Below, piece by piece: positions 19,760 to 56,255 of a stretch of 64,000 nt of DNA (its first letter is position 1; each line of letters starts with the position of its first letter). The position numbers and the translations under genes were made by a program. The notes beneath the pieces were generated by a model, which was not told the DNA's origin, searched no databases, and saw nothing but the letters and a program-made list of their open reading frames with translations. The DNA is from a virus (Duplodnaviria; Heunggongvirae; Uroviricota; Caudoviricetes). The stretch lies in the IMG/VR virus record IMGVR_UViG_2541047596_000003. One strand, 5' to 3'.

Positions 19760-19888
19760 TTTCTCACCTTGTCATTCTGTGATCTGCGTCACGCTAAATC
19801 ATACCAAAATGGATTGATCGCGGTTTTTACAATATGTATATTTTACTCAAACGGAAGCATAGTTAACAAAATGGCGCGGAGGTGCGTT

Positions 19889-20077
19889 ATGACTGAAAAG
19901 CTATGGAAGTTGACGGTATTCATGACAGACGGTAGGGAAAAGGTTATCGCCCTGTATGACGACGAGGGTGAAGCATTGGTTGACGCGCTTTTACTTGCTG
20001 AGGATGACCGCCTTTTGGGATACCAGATCGAACCTGTCAAATATGAGGCTAACAAAAATGAAAAAATACAGTCTTGA
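19889..20077 (+). CDS. Hypothetical small protein, moron gene 1 (62 aa)
   Basis: ATG 19889 preceded by GGAGGTG; opposite strand to tail operon; paralogous to the next gene. Confidence 0.45.
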   Translation: MTEKLWKLTVFMTDGREKVIALYDDEGEALVDALLLAEDDRLLGYQIEPVKYEANKNEKIQS

Positions 20078-20405
20078 TGTGTGGTTAAGTGGTAGCAAGG
20101 AGTGTTTCGGATTATTTGATAGCGAAGAAGTAGCCCTGGAAGAAGGCAGGATTCTTGAATGTAGTTTAGGCCATCCAGTGAAATATGCTGCTAATCCGGT
20201 ACAGATAGTTGATGAGGTGGAAGATATGAACCCGAAAGATATTAATGGTAGCTTCACTGCTTATTATGCAGATTCTATGGACCAGTCTTGCCCTGGTGAA
20301 ATACACGCAAAAGGTTTCCCGGCTGACGATCCAGAAGCAAAACGCGAATACGAAAAAGCGGCGAAAGATTTCTGTATCGATAACCTTTCAGCATTCGATA
20401 AATAA
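20058..20405 (+). CDS. Hypothetical protein, moron gene 2 (115 aa), paralog of gene 1
   Basis: ATG 20058 with GAGG RBS; shares the ...L.V..(T/S)...E....L.D.E..AL... and PVKY.AN motifs with the upstream gene. Confidence 0.45.
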   Translation: MKKYSLDVWLSGSKECFGLFDSEEVALEEGRILECSLGHPVKYAANPVQIVDEVEDMNPKDINGSFTAYYADSMDQSCPGEIHAKGFPADDPEAKREYEKAAKDFCIDNLSAFDK

Positions 20406-20414
20406 GGCGGCAAC

Positions 20415-20663
20415 ATGGGGCGGCGCAATCACGGTGATTATGTGTACACGTTGAAACAGGCCGCCCGCCTCATCGGTTATCATGAACACGAATTTATTGA
20501 TTTGCTGATTGAGCGCGGGATACTGTACCAGGTCTGTTTAACGCTGTACCCGAAAGCGAAATACCTACATGAAAAGTTATTCATCATCATGACGGATGAA
20601 AACCAGGTTAACCATTCATTCGTCACTGATAAGGGCGTTAATTATCTGCGTGATAACTTATAG
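20415..20663 (+). CDS. Hypothetical protein with HTH-like segment, moron gene 3 (82 aa)
   Basis: ORF immediately after gene 2; YTLKQAARLIGYHEHEFIDLLIERGIL resembles an excisionase/MerR-type HTH. Confidence 0.4.
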   Translation: MGRRNHGDYVYTLKQAARLIGYHEHEFIDLLIERGILYQVCLTLYPKAKYLHEKLFIIMTDENQVNHSFVTDKGVNYLRDNL

Positions 20664-20796
20664 GTGACTGATTATAAAAATAGAAGTTTTGGCGCTAATA
20701 ATAATGGGGTTGATAGTATTTGGCGTTCATGCTGTAGATCTGGACTGGAAAACGATAGCAGAAAATATAGCATTAATGGAAATAGAATAAAAATAA

Positions 20797-20813
20797 CCCC
20801 GCTTCGCGCGGGG
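20797..20813. terminator. Hairpin terminator between M unit and moron cassette
   Basis: CCCCGCTTCGCGCGGGG hairpin flanked by A-run and T-rich tract. Confidence 0.45.
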
Positions 20814-20819
20814 TCGTGT

Positions 20820-21017
20820 TTATACGCCATCAACCAAAAATAAAACCTCCTTCCCTTCCCGGGATCTACACCCAACGTACCCATCACCAACGTCGTGAAG
20901 ATACCATATATCGCCGTTGTCAGCTTTTACAGTAAGGTCGTTGATCTCATAGTCGTCAAACAATGTAAAAGCGTAAGTTTTGTCAACTACACAAGTCCCG
21001 TACATAACAACCCCCAT
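20820..21017 (-). CDS. Hypothetical small protein translationally coupled to M (65 aa)
   Basis: ATG overlaps the M stop codon (TAATG); followed by terminator hairpin. Confidence 0.45.
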   Translation of the reverse strand: MGVVMYGTCVVDKTYAFTLFDDYEINDLTVKADNGDIWYLHDVGDGYVGCRSREGKEVLFLVDGV

Positions 21018-21370
21018 TAGCCAACAACTTGCTCAAACGTTGCGTTTAGCGTGTACAAAGGCCCGTCTTTAGTCATGCTCCATTGCCGACAGACAAAAAG
21101 CCTTTGCACGTTATCCATTGACGGCGACCAGTAAAAAGCCTCGACCGCGCCGCGCGCCCTCAAGAATGCTTCCGCCTGGATTGCTACGTTTCCACCATCA
21201 CCACATCCGGCGCTACTGCCTTTAAACACCAGGGTGTAGCTATCAAGCAATGGATTGATACCTTTTACCTGTCTTTGCTCATAACCATCGCCCAGCTTAA
21301 CAACAGATACGTCTGGCTTCCTGGTCACGCTGTAGCTTCTTTGCGGCGTCCATCTGAACACTTCCGGCAT
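21017..21370 (-). CDS. Minor tail protein M-like (117 aa)
   Basis: Similarity to recalled lambda M (FRW.P.....V...GDGY.QR...G.N; C-terminal FEQVV). Confidence 0.75.
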   Translation of the reverse strand: MPEVFRWTPQRSYSVTRKPDVSVVKLGDGYEQRQVKGINPLLDSYTLVFKGSSAGCGDGGNVAIQAEAFLRARGAVEAFYWSPSMDNVQRLFVCRQWSMTKDGPLYTLNATFEQVVG

Positions 21371-21537
21371 AAAACCCCCACAAGTTACATTTTGTATATA
21401 TCTTTACGCGCTTCTACGCGAAAAATAAGATCATTGTCACAATGATTATAGCTAGTTTACAAAATGGCTTCACATAGCACGCAACAAGATGTATATAGAA
21501 AGCAAGAAGAAAGTAGTACCAACGAAGGAGGCCCAAA

Positions 21538-21693
21538 ATGAAACGCTATGTAGTAGTAATGCTAAATAACGCATTCGAACAAGTGGAAATAGCAATCGTT
21601 AAGGGTTTCGACGACGCATTCAAATACGGTCAATTCATGATGAATGCGAAAGAAGATGAATACCGGGACTTCTTCCTGAAGGCACTTAACTAA
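21538..21693 (+). CDS. Hypothetical small protein, moron (51 aa)
   Basis: ATG at 21538 with AAGGAGG 6 nt upstream; not in the ORF track (under 60 aa). Confidence 0.5.
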   Translation: MKRYVVVMLNNAFEQVEIAIVKGFDDAFKYGQFMMNAKEDEYRDFFLKALN

Positions 21694-21710
21694 GGATGAT
21701 GGGGTGAGTT

Positions 21711-21965
21711 ATGAAACTGGTAGCGATTGACAGAAATCTGAAAGCACAGAAAAACGCACAGGACCGGATCATCAAGAAAGGTAAGGAATTACTTAAAGCC
21801 TTTCTGAGAAAAGAAGTTTACCCCAAAAAGTTACGCGACGGTTACGGATACAAAATGGATATCAATCTTGATTGGAGGCTGTTTAGCGAAGATTTGAAGG
21901 TTTGGTTAATTGTTGAGCACCATGCCTATAACAAGTTATGTGGCGTGAAAGGCACTCATAAGTGA
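21711..21965 (+). CDS. Hypothetical protein, moron (84 aa)
   Basis: ORF 17 nt after the previous gene with GGGGTGAG RBS; followed by terminator. Confidence 0.5.
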   Translation: MKLVAIDRNLKAQKNAQDRIIKKGKELLKAFLRKEVYPKKLRDGYGYKMDINLDWRLFSEDLKVWLIVEHHAYNKLCGVKGTHK

Positions 21966-22026
21966 GTCGAGATATTCGAAAGGGGATATATCGCGCGGAA
22001 TGGTCGTTTATAAATACGAAAAATAA

Positions 22027-22045
22027 CCCCGGCATTGCACCGGGG
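22027..22045. terminator. Bidirectional terminator after tape-measure gene
   Basis: CCCCGGCATTGCACCGGGG hairpin with flanking A/T runs on both strands. Confidence 0.55.
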
Positions 22046-22051
22046 TTTAGT

Positions 22052-24394
22052 TTATTTGCGGCGAGGTTGCAACATTCCGCCTGGTCTTTGAGATTCCCTT
22101 GTTATCATTTTCATGGCTACACGTTCCATTGTTAATTCAAGTCTGCGGCTGTCTTCGTCGCTGAATCCGTTCGTGGTCTGAATGCTGATACTGACAGGCA
22201 TACTAATACCGCCACCGCCGCCAATATCACGGCCCGGAATAACTCTGCCGTTCTCGCCAGGGATCATATATTGATTGCCGTTAGATGTCTGGAATAGCTC
22301 CGGCCTGTTGTGTTCCCCTACGCGGTACATATTACCACCAATGACGCTACCACCATTAAAGCGACCGCCGCCGAAAATTGACGTAGCCAGCGACATGATC
22401 GCAGTGAGCGCCGCCGAACCAGCCGCCGCCCAGCTACCGCCAGTTGACGCCGCAGTTGCCGCCGCTGCTGGGGCCGCCGCCGCAGCAATGCTTCCCTGAG
22501 CTGCTACCGCGCTTGCTGTTGTACTTGTTTGCGTGGCCTTGCTTTGTGTCTCCATCATGATCTGATCTGCTATCCAGTTTGCAGCTATGTCTGAGAGTCT
22601 GTTACCGATATTGCCGAGTATATTGCTTCCTAAGTTAGCAAAAACATCACTCAATGATTGAGTGCCGTTTAACAGGCCAACAAGTGCATTGCTCATACCA
22701 CCTTTAAGGCCATTAACGCAATCACCGATAAGGCTGTTTGTGTCGCTTTGCGCCTGCCATTGCTCCCACTTCAGATCGCGGATCTGTTGCTCATAGGCTA
22801 ACAGTTCCTGTTTCTGTTGCGCTTCCGTCACGCCCAGGTCGATAAGCATTTGCTTACGGACGGCCCATTCATTTTGAACCTGCTGAATAGGGTCTACTTC
22901 GCCCTTTAGCTGATCCATCGGGCTTACTATTTGCTCCCATTTGTCGCGCAATTCCTCTACCGGAATTTGTGCTAATTCTTCCTTTAGTTCCTTACCTATC
23001 CCTTTTTGCGCGGCGCGGTACTCAAGGAGAGTGATTTTACCCTGGGCGAATGCAGCATCAATGGCCTTGCCGCTCTCTAACGCTTTGCGCATAGCGGCGG
23101 CGTCTTTGTTGTACTGGTCAGAAACGCTTATACCTTTATCGCCAAGACGATCAGCTTCAGATTTCTTCTCTTTTTTCTGTTTTTTCGGTTTGTCTACTGG
23201 CTTGTCGAATCCGGTAATCGCTCCGTCATTGGCGGCATTCTGTTCATTTTTCCTTGCTTCTTCTGTAGCCTGGATTGCTGCGGTCAGATCATCCTGTAGT
23301 TGCATGACCTTGCCAACGGTCTTACCGTATTTCTTCTCGTAGTTGCTGTTATATTCGTCGGTTTGCTCTCCTACGACCTCCTTCATCCATTTGTAGGCAT
23401 CCATTAGTGCCTTGATTGGCGTCACCATTGCGATGATCTTCTCGGCTACCTCGCCAGCCTTGATTCTGACATCTTCAAACATGTCGATGAATTCGCCACC
23501 AGCCGTCTTCAGGGTGTTAAAGCAGGTTTTAGCGAAATCAGCGCCTTCACCTAAAGCCTTAACACCTTTCGTTACAAGATCGATACCAGCAACAACCGTA
23601 TCGGATACACCGAAAAGATCATCCAATTGCTCAATAAGTCCCATAACCTCGACTTTAAGCTCATTCAGGGCCATGCCGGATGTGCGCGGCAACTGCGCAA
23701 ACTTCTCGTTTGTTTCCTGCGTAGCCGCCTGGATTGCGTTAACCATCCTTTCTGCCGTGATCTTACCGTCCAGCATTTCGGCGCGGAATTGGCCCATTGA
23801 TAACCCCATCTGGCGTGCCATTGTCTGTACGATGGTCGGGGTGTTTTCTAACAGGCTGTTGAATTCTTCAGCACGCAACACGCCACCGTCGATAGACTGA
23901 CGGAATTGACGCATTGAGTTTGACATCTGCTCCGCTGACGCGCCGCCCAACGCCCCCATTTTCTGAATCGTACCTACCAGGTTAAGCAATTGCCCTTCAG
24001 TGGCGGACGTGTTCTTCAGTGAGATAGCTAAGCCTTGCCACAGATCCCCGGTATCCTTCATGCTTTGGCCTGTTTCTTTTGATATTGCTTTCAGGCCATC
24101 AAAAACCCGTCCGGCGGACTCCGCATCGCCCGTAAGCATTTTGATTTTTACGCGAAGCATTTTTGCTTGCTCCGCCATATCCATAAATTGACGCACGGCC
24201 TCCGCAGCAATTAGCAAATGGATAACCCTGGTCAGTGCCTTGATGGATGTTTTCAGGGTGTTTACCTGGCGGTCAGCCTGTTTTGCGCCGCGCTCTATAC
24301 GCCCAAAGGCCTGGTCTGCCTGTCGTTGTGCAACGAGAAGTTGACCAGTTTTCGCATCAACTTCGTAATAAATTGTACCTACACTGGTAGCCAT
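22052..24394 (-). CDS. Tail tape measure protein (780 aa)
   Basis: Long Ala/Gly/Gln-rich alpha-helical protein, position upstream of M-L-K-I-J. Confidence 0.8.
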   Translation of the reverse strand: MATSVGTIYYEVDAKTGQLLVAQRQADQAFGRIERGAKQADRQVNTLKTSIKALTRVIHLLIAAEAVRQFMDMAEQAKMLRVKIKMLTGDAESAGRVFDGLKAISKETGQSMKDTGDLWQGLAISLKNTSATEGQLLNLVGTIQKMGALGGASAEQMSNSMRQFRQSIDGGVLRAEEFNSLLENTPTIVQTMARQMGLSMGQFRAEMLDGKITAERMVNAIQAATQETNEKFAQLPRTSGMALNELKVEVMGLIEQLDDLFGVSDTVVAGIDLVTKGVKALGEGADFAKTCFNTLKTAGGEFIDMFEDVRIKAGEVAEKIIAMVTPIKALMDAYKWMKEVVGEQTDEYNSNYEKKYGKTVGKVMQLQDDLTAAIQATEEARKNEQNAANDGAITGFDKPVDKPKKQKKEKKSEADRLGDKGISVSDQYNKDAAAMRKALESGKAIDAAFAQGKITLLEYRAAQKGIGKELKEELAQIPVEELRDKWEQIVSPMDQLKGEVDPIQQVQNEWAVRKQMLIDLGVTEAQQKQELLAYEQQIRDLKWEQWQAQSDTNSLIGDCVNGLKGGMSNALVGLLNGTQSLSDVFANLGSNILGNIGNRLSDIAANWIADQIMMETQSKATQTSTTASAVAAQGSIAAAAAPAAAATAASTGGSWAAAGSAALTAIMSLATSIFGGGRFNGGSVIGGNMYRVGEHNRPELFQTSNGNQYMIPGENGRVIPGRDIGGGGGISMPVSISIQTTNGFSDEDSRRLELTMERVAMKMITRESQRPGGMLQPRRK

Positions 24395-24521: not shown

Positions 24522-25181
24522 ATGAAACGGTTAGCAAAAGTGGCAATGATTGCGGCGGTATTGGGTCTGGTTGGTTGCAATGAGGATAATGAAAAAGCGC
24601 CTATAGTGACCACTCAAGAACAACAAGCATTAGCAGAGAAAAATGCTAAATGGCTTGCAGAACAACAAGCAAAACAAGCCGCATATGAGGCACAGTTAGC
24701 AAAAGAAAAAGCTGGTAAACAGTGGCTTGTGGTCGAAAGAAAAGATGATATGCAGGACACAAAAAACGTGTTCCTTTTCGTGAAAGCAGAACATTTCAGC
24801 GGAAGTCTTGATGCTTTCCCTACACTGAAAGCACGGGATGAAAACAAACCTGTATTAACAATCGCTTGCCAGGGTAATAAAACAAAAATGTTCGTAGCAT
24901 GGTCAAACCATGTAACTGACGCTGGGGACACTACTTATATTAACTACCGGATCGGCGATCACAAAGCTGTAGCTACTGAATGGAGTCGGTCAACTAACTA
25001 TAAAGCTCTTGGATTATGGAACGGCAAAAAAGCCATTCCAATGATTAAAAAACTGGTTAACGAAAAACAATTTATCATTGAAGTAGTGCCGGAAGCTGGC
25101 GACATTGAGAAAGCAGTGTTTAACATTGATGGTCTTTATAACCACATCGACAAAGTGAAAAACGCTTGCAACTGGAATTAA
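24522..25181 (+). CDS. Lipoprotein, moron (219 aa)
   Basis: Lipobox LVGC after signal peptide MKRLAKVAMIAAVLG; opposite strand between tape measure and tail chaperone genes. Confidence 0.6.
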   Translation: MKRLAKVAMIAAVLGLVGCNEDNEKAPIVTTQEQQALAEKNAKWLAEQQAKQAAYEAQLAKEKAGKQWLVVERKDDMQDTKNVFLFVKAEHFSGSLDAFPTLKARDENKPVLTIACQGNKTKMFVAWSNHVTDAGDTTYINYRIGDHKAVATEWSRSTNYKALGLWNGKKAIPMIKKLVNEKQFIIEVVPEAGDIEKAVFNIDGLYNHIDKVKNACNWN

Positions 25182-54481: not shown

Positions 54482-54511
54482 AATGTCATCTCCGGATGTT
54501 TACATTTTGTA

Positions 54512-55302: not shown

Positions 55303-55950
55303 TTATGGCAGGTTTACGATCTTCGCATCAACCACCACGCCTATAATTTTTGATTCTGGATTCATAGGGATTGGCGGATACAGCGGATTGAGCGAACGTA
55401 AAAGCCTTTGACCTCCATCAATAATCAACTGTTTAAACGTCGGTATCTGCCCTTCCTCAAGCTGGGCTATAACCAGTTTGCCGTCAATAGCTGGCGCGTG
55501 CGGGTCCACAAGTATCATCGTCCCCGCCGGGATGCTCAACCCCTGCGGCGCGTTCATTGATTCACCTTTGGCAACCAGCCAGTAACTGTCATCTGAACAA
55601 ATAACGCTAGTCGTAACGTGTCGTAATGCTGAACGCCTTGCGTCATCCATATTGTTTACTGTGTCCTTCCAGTCAATAACCGGGTAACTACCTAAATCAC
55701 GCGGCGGCACGGCCTGAAGTGTATTAGAAACAGAATCATCAATGACCATGCCATCATGTGTAACAGTAAACTGCCGACGACCAAGCTCGCGCATAATCCG
55801 CGCAATATCTTCAAGATTTGGCTCTCGGCGACCGTTCAGCCAGTGTGACAGGCCGCCTTTAGTTATCCCCATACGATCCGCGAGTGAATCCTGGCTCATG
55901 CCCTGCGCCCGCATGAGCTGCTTTGCTAAGTCATACCATTTTGTTTTCAT
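55303..55950 (-). CDS. CI/C2-type repressor with LexA-like S24 peptidase domain (215 aa)
   Basis: N-terminal HTH (QDSLADRMGITKGGLSHW), C-terminal autocleavage domain with GESM Ser and catalytic Lys; divergent from plus-strand early genes. Confidence 0.78.
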   Translation of the reverse strand: MKTKWYDLAKQLMRAQGMSQDSLADRMGITKGGLSHWLNGRREPNLEDIARIMRELGRRQFTVTHDGMVIDDSVSNTLQAVPPRDLGSYPVIDWKDTVNNMDDARRSALRHVTTSVICSDDSYWLVAKGESMNAPQGLSIPAGTMILVDPHAPAIDGKLVIAQLEEGQIPTFKQLIIDGGQRLLRSLNPLYPPIPMNPESKIIGVVVDAKIVNLP

Positions 55951-56113
55951 GTCGCTACCCTATAACCTCAAAAAGTTTGATGCAAGTCACAAAACGTGTA
56001 TTTTAAGCCTTGATCTTAAAATTCCATTTTGTAAACTTGCAGACAAGGTAAGGCCATACTTGCAAAGACGCAAGGAAAAAGATAACTGAAGGCACAAAAA
56101 GGCACTTACCTTA

Positions 56114-56148
56114 TGCTCTTTAAAAATCCGGTGTCGCTGCGAAGCGAA
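56114..56148 (+). promoter_or_regulatory. nut-like site (boxA-like TGCTCTTTAAAAA plus small hairpin)
   Basis: boxA-like sequence close to the rrn/P22 boxA as recalled, followed by GTCGCTGCGAAGCGA stem-loop; identical 18-mer recurs at 47463-47480 on the minus strand. Confidence 0.4.
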
Positions 56149-56255
56149 AAACAAATATCACGCAACGGCGGGATCTGTTGAGCGGTCAGTCACTGCTATC
56201 TAATGCTAATGGGATGCCCGCCCGCGCGTTCACTCTAACCATAGGAGAAAATGCG

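Follow-up and report, generated by a model that had tools for sequence, protein, structure and literature searches.

A plus-strand accessory cassette in the tail operon of an mEp021-group Escherichia coli prophage, with a small protein of the ParE_like family PF24732 as its persistent core

The 64,000-nucleotide (nt) stretch of Caudoviricetes DNA analysed here, referred to below as the window, is IMG/VR virus record IMGVR_UViG_2541047596_000003. Its tail operon is read from the minus strand, and a 681-bp insert read from the opposite, plus strand (21371-22051) lies between the tape measure gene (22052-24394, minus; Pfam TMP_3, E=1.3e-48) and the gene of an M-like minor tail protein (21017-21370, minus; Pfam Phage_min_tail, E=1.2e-27), beyond which follow, also on the minus strand, L, K, I and J. 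The insert carries two small plus-strand open reading frames (ORFs), ORF-A of 51 amino acids (aa) at 21538-21693 and the basic, 84-aa ORF-B at 21711-21965, with a gap of 17 nt between them. ORF-A is preceded by the Shine-Dalgarno (SD) sequence AAGGAGG (21525-21531), placed 6 nt before its ATG and conserved at 0.95, and a weaker SD, GGGGTGAG, can be read in front of ORF-B at 21701-21708. A GC-rich hairpin at 22025-22047, with folding energies of -15.0 and -16.3 kcal/mol, scores as a terminator on both strands and is common to ORF-B and the tape measure gene. An earlier note on this DNA had described the insert as a second moron, a two-gene plus-strand cassette with a bidirectional terminator, an AAGGAGG ribosome-binding site before the 51-aa ORF, and a recurrent motif, a two-part element and a 17-bp palindrome upstream, and had likened it to toxin-antitoxin (TA) or small regulatory modules. 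All the features that it listed are present at the positions given; taken as a whole, its observations are partly confirmed and its interpretation is partly supported.

Both ORFs are real protein-coding genes. In a set made up of three GenBank phage loci and IMG/VR contigs, no internal stop is found in 35 copies of ORF-A or in 37 copies of ORF-B, and the median ratio of nonsynonymous to synonymous substitution rates (dN/dS) is 0.041 and 0.062, respectively; conservation in frame, on which the earlier note had made its reading depend, is found for both. The product of ORF-A is a hypothetical protein (RefSeq WP_001329613.1; PHROG phrog_29810, function unknown) whose 57 database homologs are all 76-100% identical, and the gene appears to be restricted to this phage group. 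ORF-A gave no match in Pfam (E<=1), NCBIfam (E<=10), PADLOC or the sequences of the PDB, and so none to a DNA-binding domain or an antitoxin family. A paralogous relationship with the small proteins of beta-hairpin-helix appearance encoded at the start of the neighbouring moron (19890-20400) was considered and rejected, hhalign probabilities being <=0.2%.

E. coli M1/5 and FAH carry the 681-bp region in their chromosomes with 100% identity, and among 5426 complete E. coli genomes it occurs in 32, chromosomal in every case. Of the phages that have been isolated, MagusPhagus and those of the mEp021 group (mEp021, mEp554, mEp010, mEp044, mEp013, mEp515) are the nearest; they are the 'mEpimmI' coliphages, which are temperate, non-lambdoid and Nus-dependent (PMC11893012). 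In mEp021, ORF-A and ORF-B correspond to genes 68 and 67. The paper describing them holds no toxin, moron or ParE content and names accessory or hypothetical genes only briefly (PMC11893012). A scan of positions 21200-22200 against Rfam gave no meaningful match.

Comparison with related loci shows that ORF-B is the persistent core of this slot, intact with or without ORF-A and with changing small genes downstream. Three distinct phage or prophage sequences (L017, L020 and L041) lack ORF-A at a clean SD-to-SD junction and have the same promoter region followed immediately by an intact 84-aa ORF-B. The complete genome of the cultured strain UMNK88 (L100) matches L020 base for base over the control region and has an identical ORF-B, and the two IMG/VR phage contigs without ORF-A were not among the hits of a pattern scan for it, no copy having been found elsewhere on them. 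At the loci lacking ORF-A, the ratio of nonsynonymous to synonymous polymorphism (pN/pS) of ORF-B is 0.08-0.10 with up to 28 synonymous differences, indicating purifying selection, and L041 has an ORF-B protein (P0014) that is also found, in identical form, beside ORF-A in other genomes. The divergence of ORF-A tracks that of M and the control region (Mantel r=0.71) more than that of ORF-B (r=0.34); in MagusPhagus, ORF-A is 100% identical and ORF-B 67% identical. A recombination boundary lies between the two genes.

In relatives, the slot holds 2 to ~7 different small genes. Those found downstream of ORF-B include C49 (MRWRELHSYGIR...), whose start overlaps the ORF-B stop, c30 (MEDDKFTWREIW...), D56/58 (MKNPANKSNVKR...), E59 (MIIHETEECRRI...) and, in mEp021, a gene for a 158-aa zinc-ribbon protein; the window's own clade has none of them, and only 90 nt separate ORF-B from the tape measure gene. 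The small genes that follow ORF-B in relatives (L003, L019, L021, L037, L041 and others) are variable and none is of a known family. HNH_3 endonuclease genes are also inserted in the tail operon of relatives, between M and ORF-A in L053 (682-1155) and between J and I in L041 (781-1347), and the same intergenic slots therefore take homing-endonuclease-like cargo. The concept of the phage moron goes back to Hendrix and colleagues (reviewed in PMC3594210), and the cassette is, as described in the earlier note, a separately punctuated insert between conserved genes that varies among related phages. It shares with other late-operon morons its independence, with promoter-like signals and a terminator of its own, the position between conserved tail genes and the changing content; unlike them, it is antisense to the tail operon and its terminator is common with the tape measure gene.

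The divergent control region between M on the minus strand and ORF-A on the plus strand (21371-21537) has a median pairwise p-distance of 0.126 over 25 haplotypes, and is under constraint, since this value is far below the synonymous divergence of the flanking ORFs (dS 0.8-1.3). Its promoter-like blocks and SD show 94-98% conservation over the 25 upstream haplotypes. A putative sigma-70 promoter for ORF-A and ORF-B, TTCACA-N17-TATATA, can be read at 21469-21497 (plus), with hexamers conserved at 0.97 and 0.94, and is the candidate promoter of the cassette.

ORF-B can be assigned to a family. It matches Pfam PF24732 (ParE_like, 'ParE-like toxin domain') with a score of 45.3 bits (cutoff 24.4; E=9e-12), the alignment running over residues 19-75 of the protein and positions 2-67 of the 67 in the profile; six rescanned relatives match the same family, as do all full-length homologs in precomputed Pfam hits, and RefSeq names the identical protein WP_000779577.1 'ParE family toxin-like protein'. 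The family around ORF-B is tiny, with 8 proteins at E<=1e-3 in an exhaustive HMMER search of 1.84 billion representatives. No locus was confirmed when the GTDB species-representative genomes were scanned with the ORF-B alignment, phmmer and profile searches of the PDB returned nothing relevant, NCBIfam and PADLOC gave no match, and nothing was found in the literature on PF24732.

Structure prediction, one of the checks that the earlier note had proposed, was carried out for ORF-B. An AlphaFold model built from a shallow alignment of close homologs was poor, with a predicted local distance difference test score (pLDDT) of 59.9, and was discarded; a usable model needed a diverse alignment to which distant PF24732 members had been added. 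This second model (pLDDT 86.7; predicted template modelling score, pTM, 0.73) consists of two short strands, a helix, three strands and a C-terminal helix, and shows the N-terminal helical element on a 3-4 stranded antiparallel sheet that characterises the superfamily. Foldseek relates it to YoeB with a probability of 0.96, the template modelling score (TM-score) being only 0.49, and ribonuclease (RNase)-type toxins rank above ParE structures. A RelE/YafQ/ParE-superfamily fold of ORF-B is supported at moderate scores. Over 21 sequences, down to 26% identity, residues K40, L41, R56, H70 and N74 are invariant and Y73 is mostly conserved.

ORF-B resembles the RNase branch of the RelE/ParE toxins (YafQ of DinJ-YafQ, HigB, YoeB, RelE) in being small and basic, in having an invariant Arg in the middle strand and in the His/Tyr-Asn that follows the last strand. 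It differs from this branch in lacking detectable sequence or profile similarity to the characterised members and in its N-terminus, modelled as a beta-hairpin and one helix, whereas that of classical RelE/ParE members is strand-helix-helix; its partner gene is also dispensable and belongs to none of the DinJ, HigA, YefM or RelB antitoxin families. The Pfam and RefSeq names point to the ParE gyrase poisons, whereas ParE structures rank below the RNase-type toxins. As with PaaR2-PaaA2-ParE2 of an E. coli O157:H7 prophage, the cassette is prophage-borne with a short partner devoid of a DNA-binding domain, PaaA2 being a short antitoxin of that kind; in contrast to that system, it has no third regulator gene, and ORF-A is unrelated to PaaA2, shorter and not obligatory.

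The closest structural relatives of ORF-B come from phages with very large genomes. Its best matches in BFVD are proteins of the jumbo phages fHe-Yen9-04 and RaK2 (TM-scores 0.78 and 0.75; E=3e-6 and 1.6e-5), and the jumbo-phage members of PF24732 (RaK2, K64-1, Muenster, phAPEC6, fHe-Yen9-04, GAP32) have, at ~70-83 aa, a similar size. Their identity to ORF-B is only ~24-33%, and their genes lie in long same-strand arrays of small genes, whereas ORF-B is part of a cassette that a temperate phage carries in its tail operon, on the opposite strand. A tblastn search with one distant member, P0110, found 70 phage records, including phAPEC6, K64-1, Muenster and GAP32; among the matches listed (25), all are 310-386 kb. 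No ORF-A homolog is found near the distant relatives of ORF-B. In the virulent Klebsiella phage Muenster, the gene of the PF24732 relative lies in the annotated terminal repeat, and the GenBank note on this distant relative reads 'putative YafQ-like ribonuclease toxin' (HHpred 4MMG_B, 97.7%). This HHpred result is the sole link at the profile level, and an indirect one, between ORF-B and the characterised members.

The best reading of the cassette is that of an ordinary accessory unit of an mEp021-group (mEpimmI) E. coli prophage, and not of a demonstrated TA pair. We give about an even chance to a more specific form of this reading, an autonomous moron in a recombination-prone cargo slot whose core is a RelE/YafQ-fold effector not dependent on ORF-A. 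ORF-B alone would then be a phage effector of the RelE/YafQ type, which would most likely bind the ribosome or mRNA and dampen or cleave host messages; in virulent jumbo phages, its distant relatives may fulfil this task as solitary genes. ORF-A, co-transcribed and lineage-restricted, would be at most a facultative modulator of ORF-B and not an obligate antitoxin. Being antisense to the late tail transcript, with which it has a terminator in common, the cassette would probably be expressed in the lysogen or early after infection, and late antisense transcription from the tail operon would silence it late in infection.

A number of observations weigh against this autonomous-effector reading. 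The consensus promoter scan flagged no plus-strand promoter in the cassette; the putative -10, TATATA, is imperfect, and TTCACA-N17-TATATA was missed because this hexamer lacks the final T. As to the activity of ORF-B, what points to an RNase is the rank order of the fold matches: hhalign comparisons of the ORF-B family with RelE, YoeB and a four-member YoeB alignment gave non-significant probabilities of <=1.3% (the E. coli YoeB sequence used was confirmed to be exact). The catalytic residues of RelE-type ribosome-dependent mRNA interferases are E46, R65, H83 and Y84 in YoeB and K52, K54, R61, R81 and Y87 in RelE. In the non-significant alignment, R56 of ORF-B pairs with R65 of YoeB, and the position of the general base Glu46 is a Lys. 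Further points concern the pairing of the two genes. An intact ORF-B follows ORF-A in 44 of 44 ORF-A-bearing IMG/VR loci, at a spacing of 17-22 nt, and gene order, sizes, the strong SD of ORF-A against the weaker one of ORF-B and the basic nature of ORF-B all fit a type II pair. All loci that lack ORF-A carry c30 and D56/58 downstream, either of which could be an alternative neutraliser of ORF-B, and no locus was seen with ORF-B entirely alone. In some prophages, truncated ORF-B alleles of 47-61 aa stand beside an intact 51-aa ORF-A (L051, 1440-1625; L052, 1501-1665; L053, 1501-1644); each gene is therefore individually dispensable. Finally, solitary or antitoxin-less toxins have been reported in TA surveys (PMC3141249).

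In a rival reading, the cassette would be a canonical type II TA system, in which ORF-A is a short labile antitoxin that lacks a DNA-binding domain, like PaaA2, and neutralises ORF-B, with a role in prophage stabilisation or in aborting infection by other phages. We consider this possible, though rather unlikely. The two small genes are adjacent and co-oriented in what looks like one operon, with one promoter-like region and one terminator; the small gene precedes the putative toxin gene, ORF-B has a toxin fold and family, both genes are under strong purifying selection, and a truncated ORF-B beside an intact ORF-A would be expected if the toxin decays first. The toxin gene of such a pair is, however, not expected to be kept without its antitoxin, and an intact, selected ORF-B is found without ORF-A in three distinct sequences (L017, L041 and L020, the last also in UMNK88), the same ORF-B protein occurring with and without ORF-A. 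The two genes do not co-diverge, ORF-A is neither in nor like an antitoxin family, neither protein matches PADLOC, there is no conserved palindromic operator, and the virulent-phage relatives of ORF-B have no ORF-A homolog nearby. C49, c30, D58 and E59 of the phages lacking ORF-A were also checked, and none belongs to an antitoxin family. Of the TA-like or regulatory module suggested in the earlier note, the compact, separately punctuated two-gene cassette stands, while an obligate antitoxin and an operator are not supported; against the 51-aa protein as an obligate antitoxin speak its lack of a family match, its absence from three ORF-B-bearing sequences and its lack of co-divergence with ORF-B.

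It has also to be considered that ORF-B is a catalytically inert decoy with a function in counter-defence, which titrates a host antitoxin or TA regulator, or occupies the ribosome site of host RelE-type abortive-infection toxins, with ORF-A as unrelated cargo. The tolerance of ORF-B without ORF-A, the Lys at the position of YoeB Glu46 in the non-significant alignment and the wide occurrence of the family in virulent phages would all be in line with such a role, but the invariant K40, L41, R56, H70 and N74 suggest a conserved active or binding site, and we regard a decoy as improbable.

The reading of ORF-B as an effector that acts without ORF-A can be extended, tentatively and with modest confidence at best, to the whole of PF24732. 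The family may represent an antitoxin-independent branch of the RelE/YafQ fold that is deployed by phages: its members would act early and alone as effectors in virulent jumbo phages and, in the temperate mEp021 group, from a cassette on the opposite strand, with possible roles in host translation reprogramming or shut-off or in countering host RelE-type abortive-infection toxins. In this case, ORF-A would be a timer or modulator specific to the phage group and not an addiction antitoxin. Should ORF-B prove active with no antitoxin, temperate and virulent phages would have in common a phage-side effector with a classical 'toxin' fold, which would bear on phage host shut-off and on the evasion of TA-based defence, and would call for caution in naming every small gene beside a RelE/ParE-like gene an antitoxin. 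The family assignment in Pfam and the RefSeq name are already known and the practical value is modest at present; what looks mildly novel is that the toxin-fold family PF24732 appears phage-borne and antitoxin-independent.

The perfect 17-bp palindrome ATCATTGTCACAATGAT at 21430-21446, 23 nt upstream of the putative -35, had been regarded as operator-like. It is present, but neither its frequency nor its conservation speaks for such a role. The window contains 4 perfect palindromes with 8-bp arms vs. 2.85 +/- 1.5 expected from Markov-1 simulations, and only the window's own clade has this one in perfect form; in other lineages the site reads ATCTTCATCACAATGAT, AACTTCGTCACAAGAAT etc., with 2-6 of the 8 arm pairs complementary, and no other named segment of the control region is less conserved than the left arm (0.79). 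We judge the palindrome to be a lineage-specific chance feature with no role. A regulatory module in which ORF-A binds DNA and autoregulates the cassette through the palindrome, as the position upstream of the putative -35 might suggest, is very improbable, given a palindrome at chance level that is perfect in one clade only, a MagusPhagus site (ATCTTCATCACAATGAT) with only 5 of 8 arm pairs complementary despite an identical ORF-A protein, and an ORF-A that matches no DNA-binding domain. Another perfect palindrome, TTCGAAAATTTTTCGAA, extending to CTTCGAAAATTTTTCGAAG, lies at 33744-33760 in a 150-nt gap between two minus-strand late genes.

The recurrent motif TACAAAATG, which the earlier note had recognised upstream of the cassette, is strongly overrepresented, with 14 copies in the window vs. 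1.04 expected and none of 100 shuffles reaching 14. The 9-mers are located at 21388, 21458, 21849, 24437, 24464, 32438, 47499, 47565, 51101, 54503, 55182, 56025, 58866 and 60005, and two of them flank the cassette control region (21388-21396, minus; 21458-21466, plus). The former is part of TACAAAATGTAA on the minus strand (21385-21396; conservation 0.95), ~10 nt 5' of the SD of M, GGGGG, and the latter of TTTACAAAATGG (21456-21467, plus; conservation 0.98), which abuts the putative -35 hexamer. The layout TAC(A/C)AAAATGG, 1 nt, -35, 17 nt, -10 is also found at 19803, 24437 and 55182 (minus strand), the first two in front of the two remaining plus-strand cargo units in the tail region. Two classes of the motif can be discerned. 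Copies of the first, TACAAAATGG, directly adjoin a -35-like hexamer that is followed after 17 nt by a -10-like hexamer, and they precede plus-strand cargo genes; copies of the second, TACAAAATGTAA, are placed 4-8 nt ahead of an SD and ATG, examples being M at 21370 and the genes at 54503 and 58866. A function of TACAAAATG as CI operator was rejected by eye, the region upstream of the repressor having CTTGC..GCAAG inverted repeats instead. The CI-like repressor (HTH_3 and Peptidase_S24) is encoded at 55303-55950 (minus), and the inverted repeats CTTGCAGACAAG and CTTGCAAAGACGCAAG in its upstream region (55951-56177) are probable immunity operators.

The two-part element of the earlier note is likewise present, as a TACGCG direct repeat TTTACGCG-N4-TACGCGAAAAATA (whole stretch TTTACGCGCTTCTACGCGAAAAATA) at 21403-21427, conserved at 0.97. 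A second copy, identical in 23 of 25 positions, is found at 33654-33678, 5' of another minus-strand late gene and ~70 nt from the palindrome at 33744-33760. Each copy lies 23-33 nt 5' of the start of a minus-strand late gene (33 nt for M). The fold of the element is more stable on the minus strand (-10.6 kcal/mol, z -3.0) than on the plus strand (-5.1 kcal/mol, z -1.3), and a U:G pair of the hairpin in copy 1 is replaced by U:A in copy 2 and in locus L016. The element may be a small hairpin on the minus-strand late transcript and not part of the plus-strand cassette.

Two further units of opposite-strand cargo occur in the same tail region. A gene at 24522-25181 (plus), between the tape measure gene and the upstream tail genes, encodes a 219-aa lipoprotein-like product (Pfam VasI, E=1.7e-16; RefSeq 'type VI secretion system-associated protein TagO') and has two inverted copies of TACAAAATG upstream (24437, 24464). 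Between L and M, a cluster of three genes (19769-20663, plus) includes one for an 82-aa KilAC/ANT-domain antirepressor-like protein; it has its own terminator near 20795-20815 and a promoter-like site, TACCAAAATGG-TTGATC-N17-TATATT, at 19803-19847.

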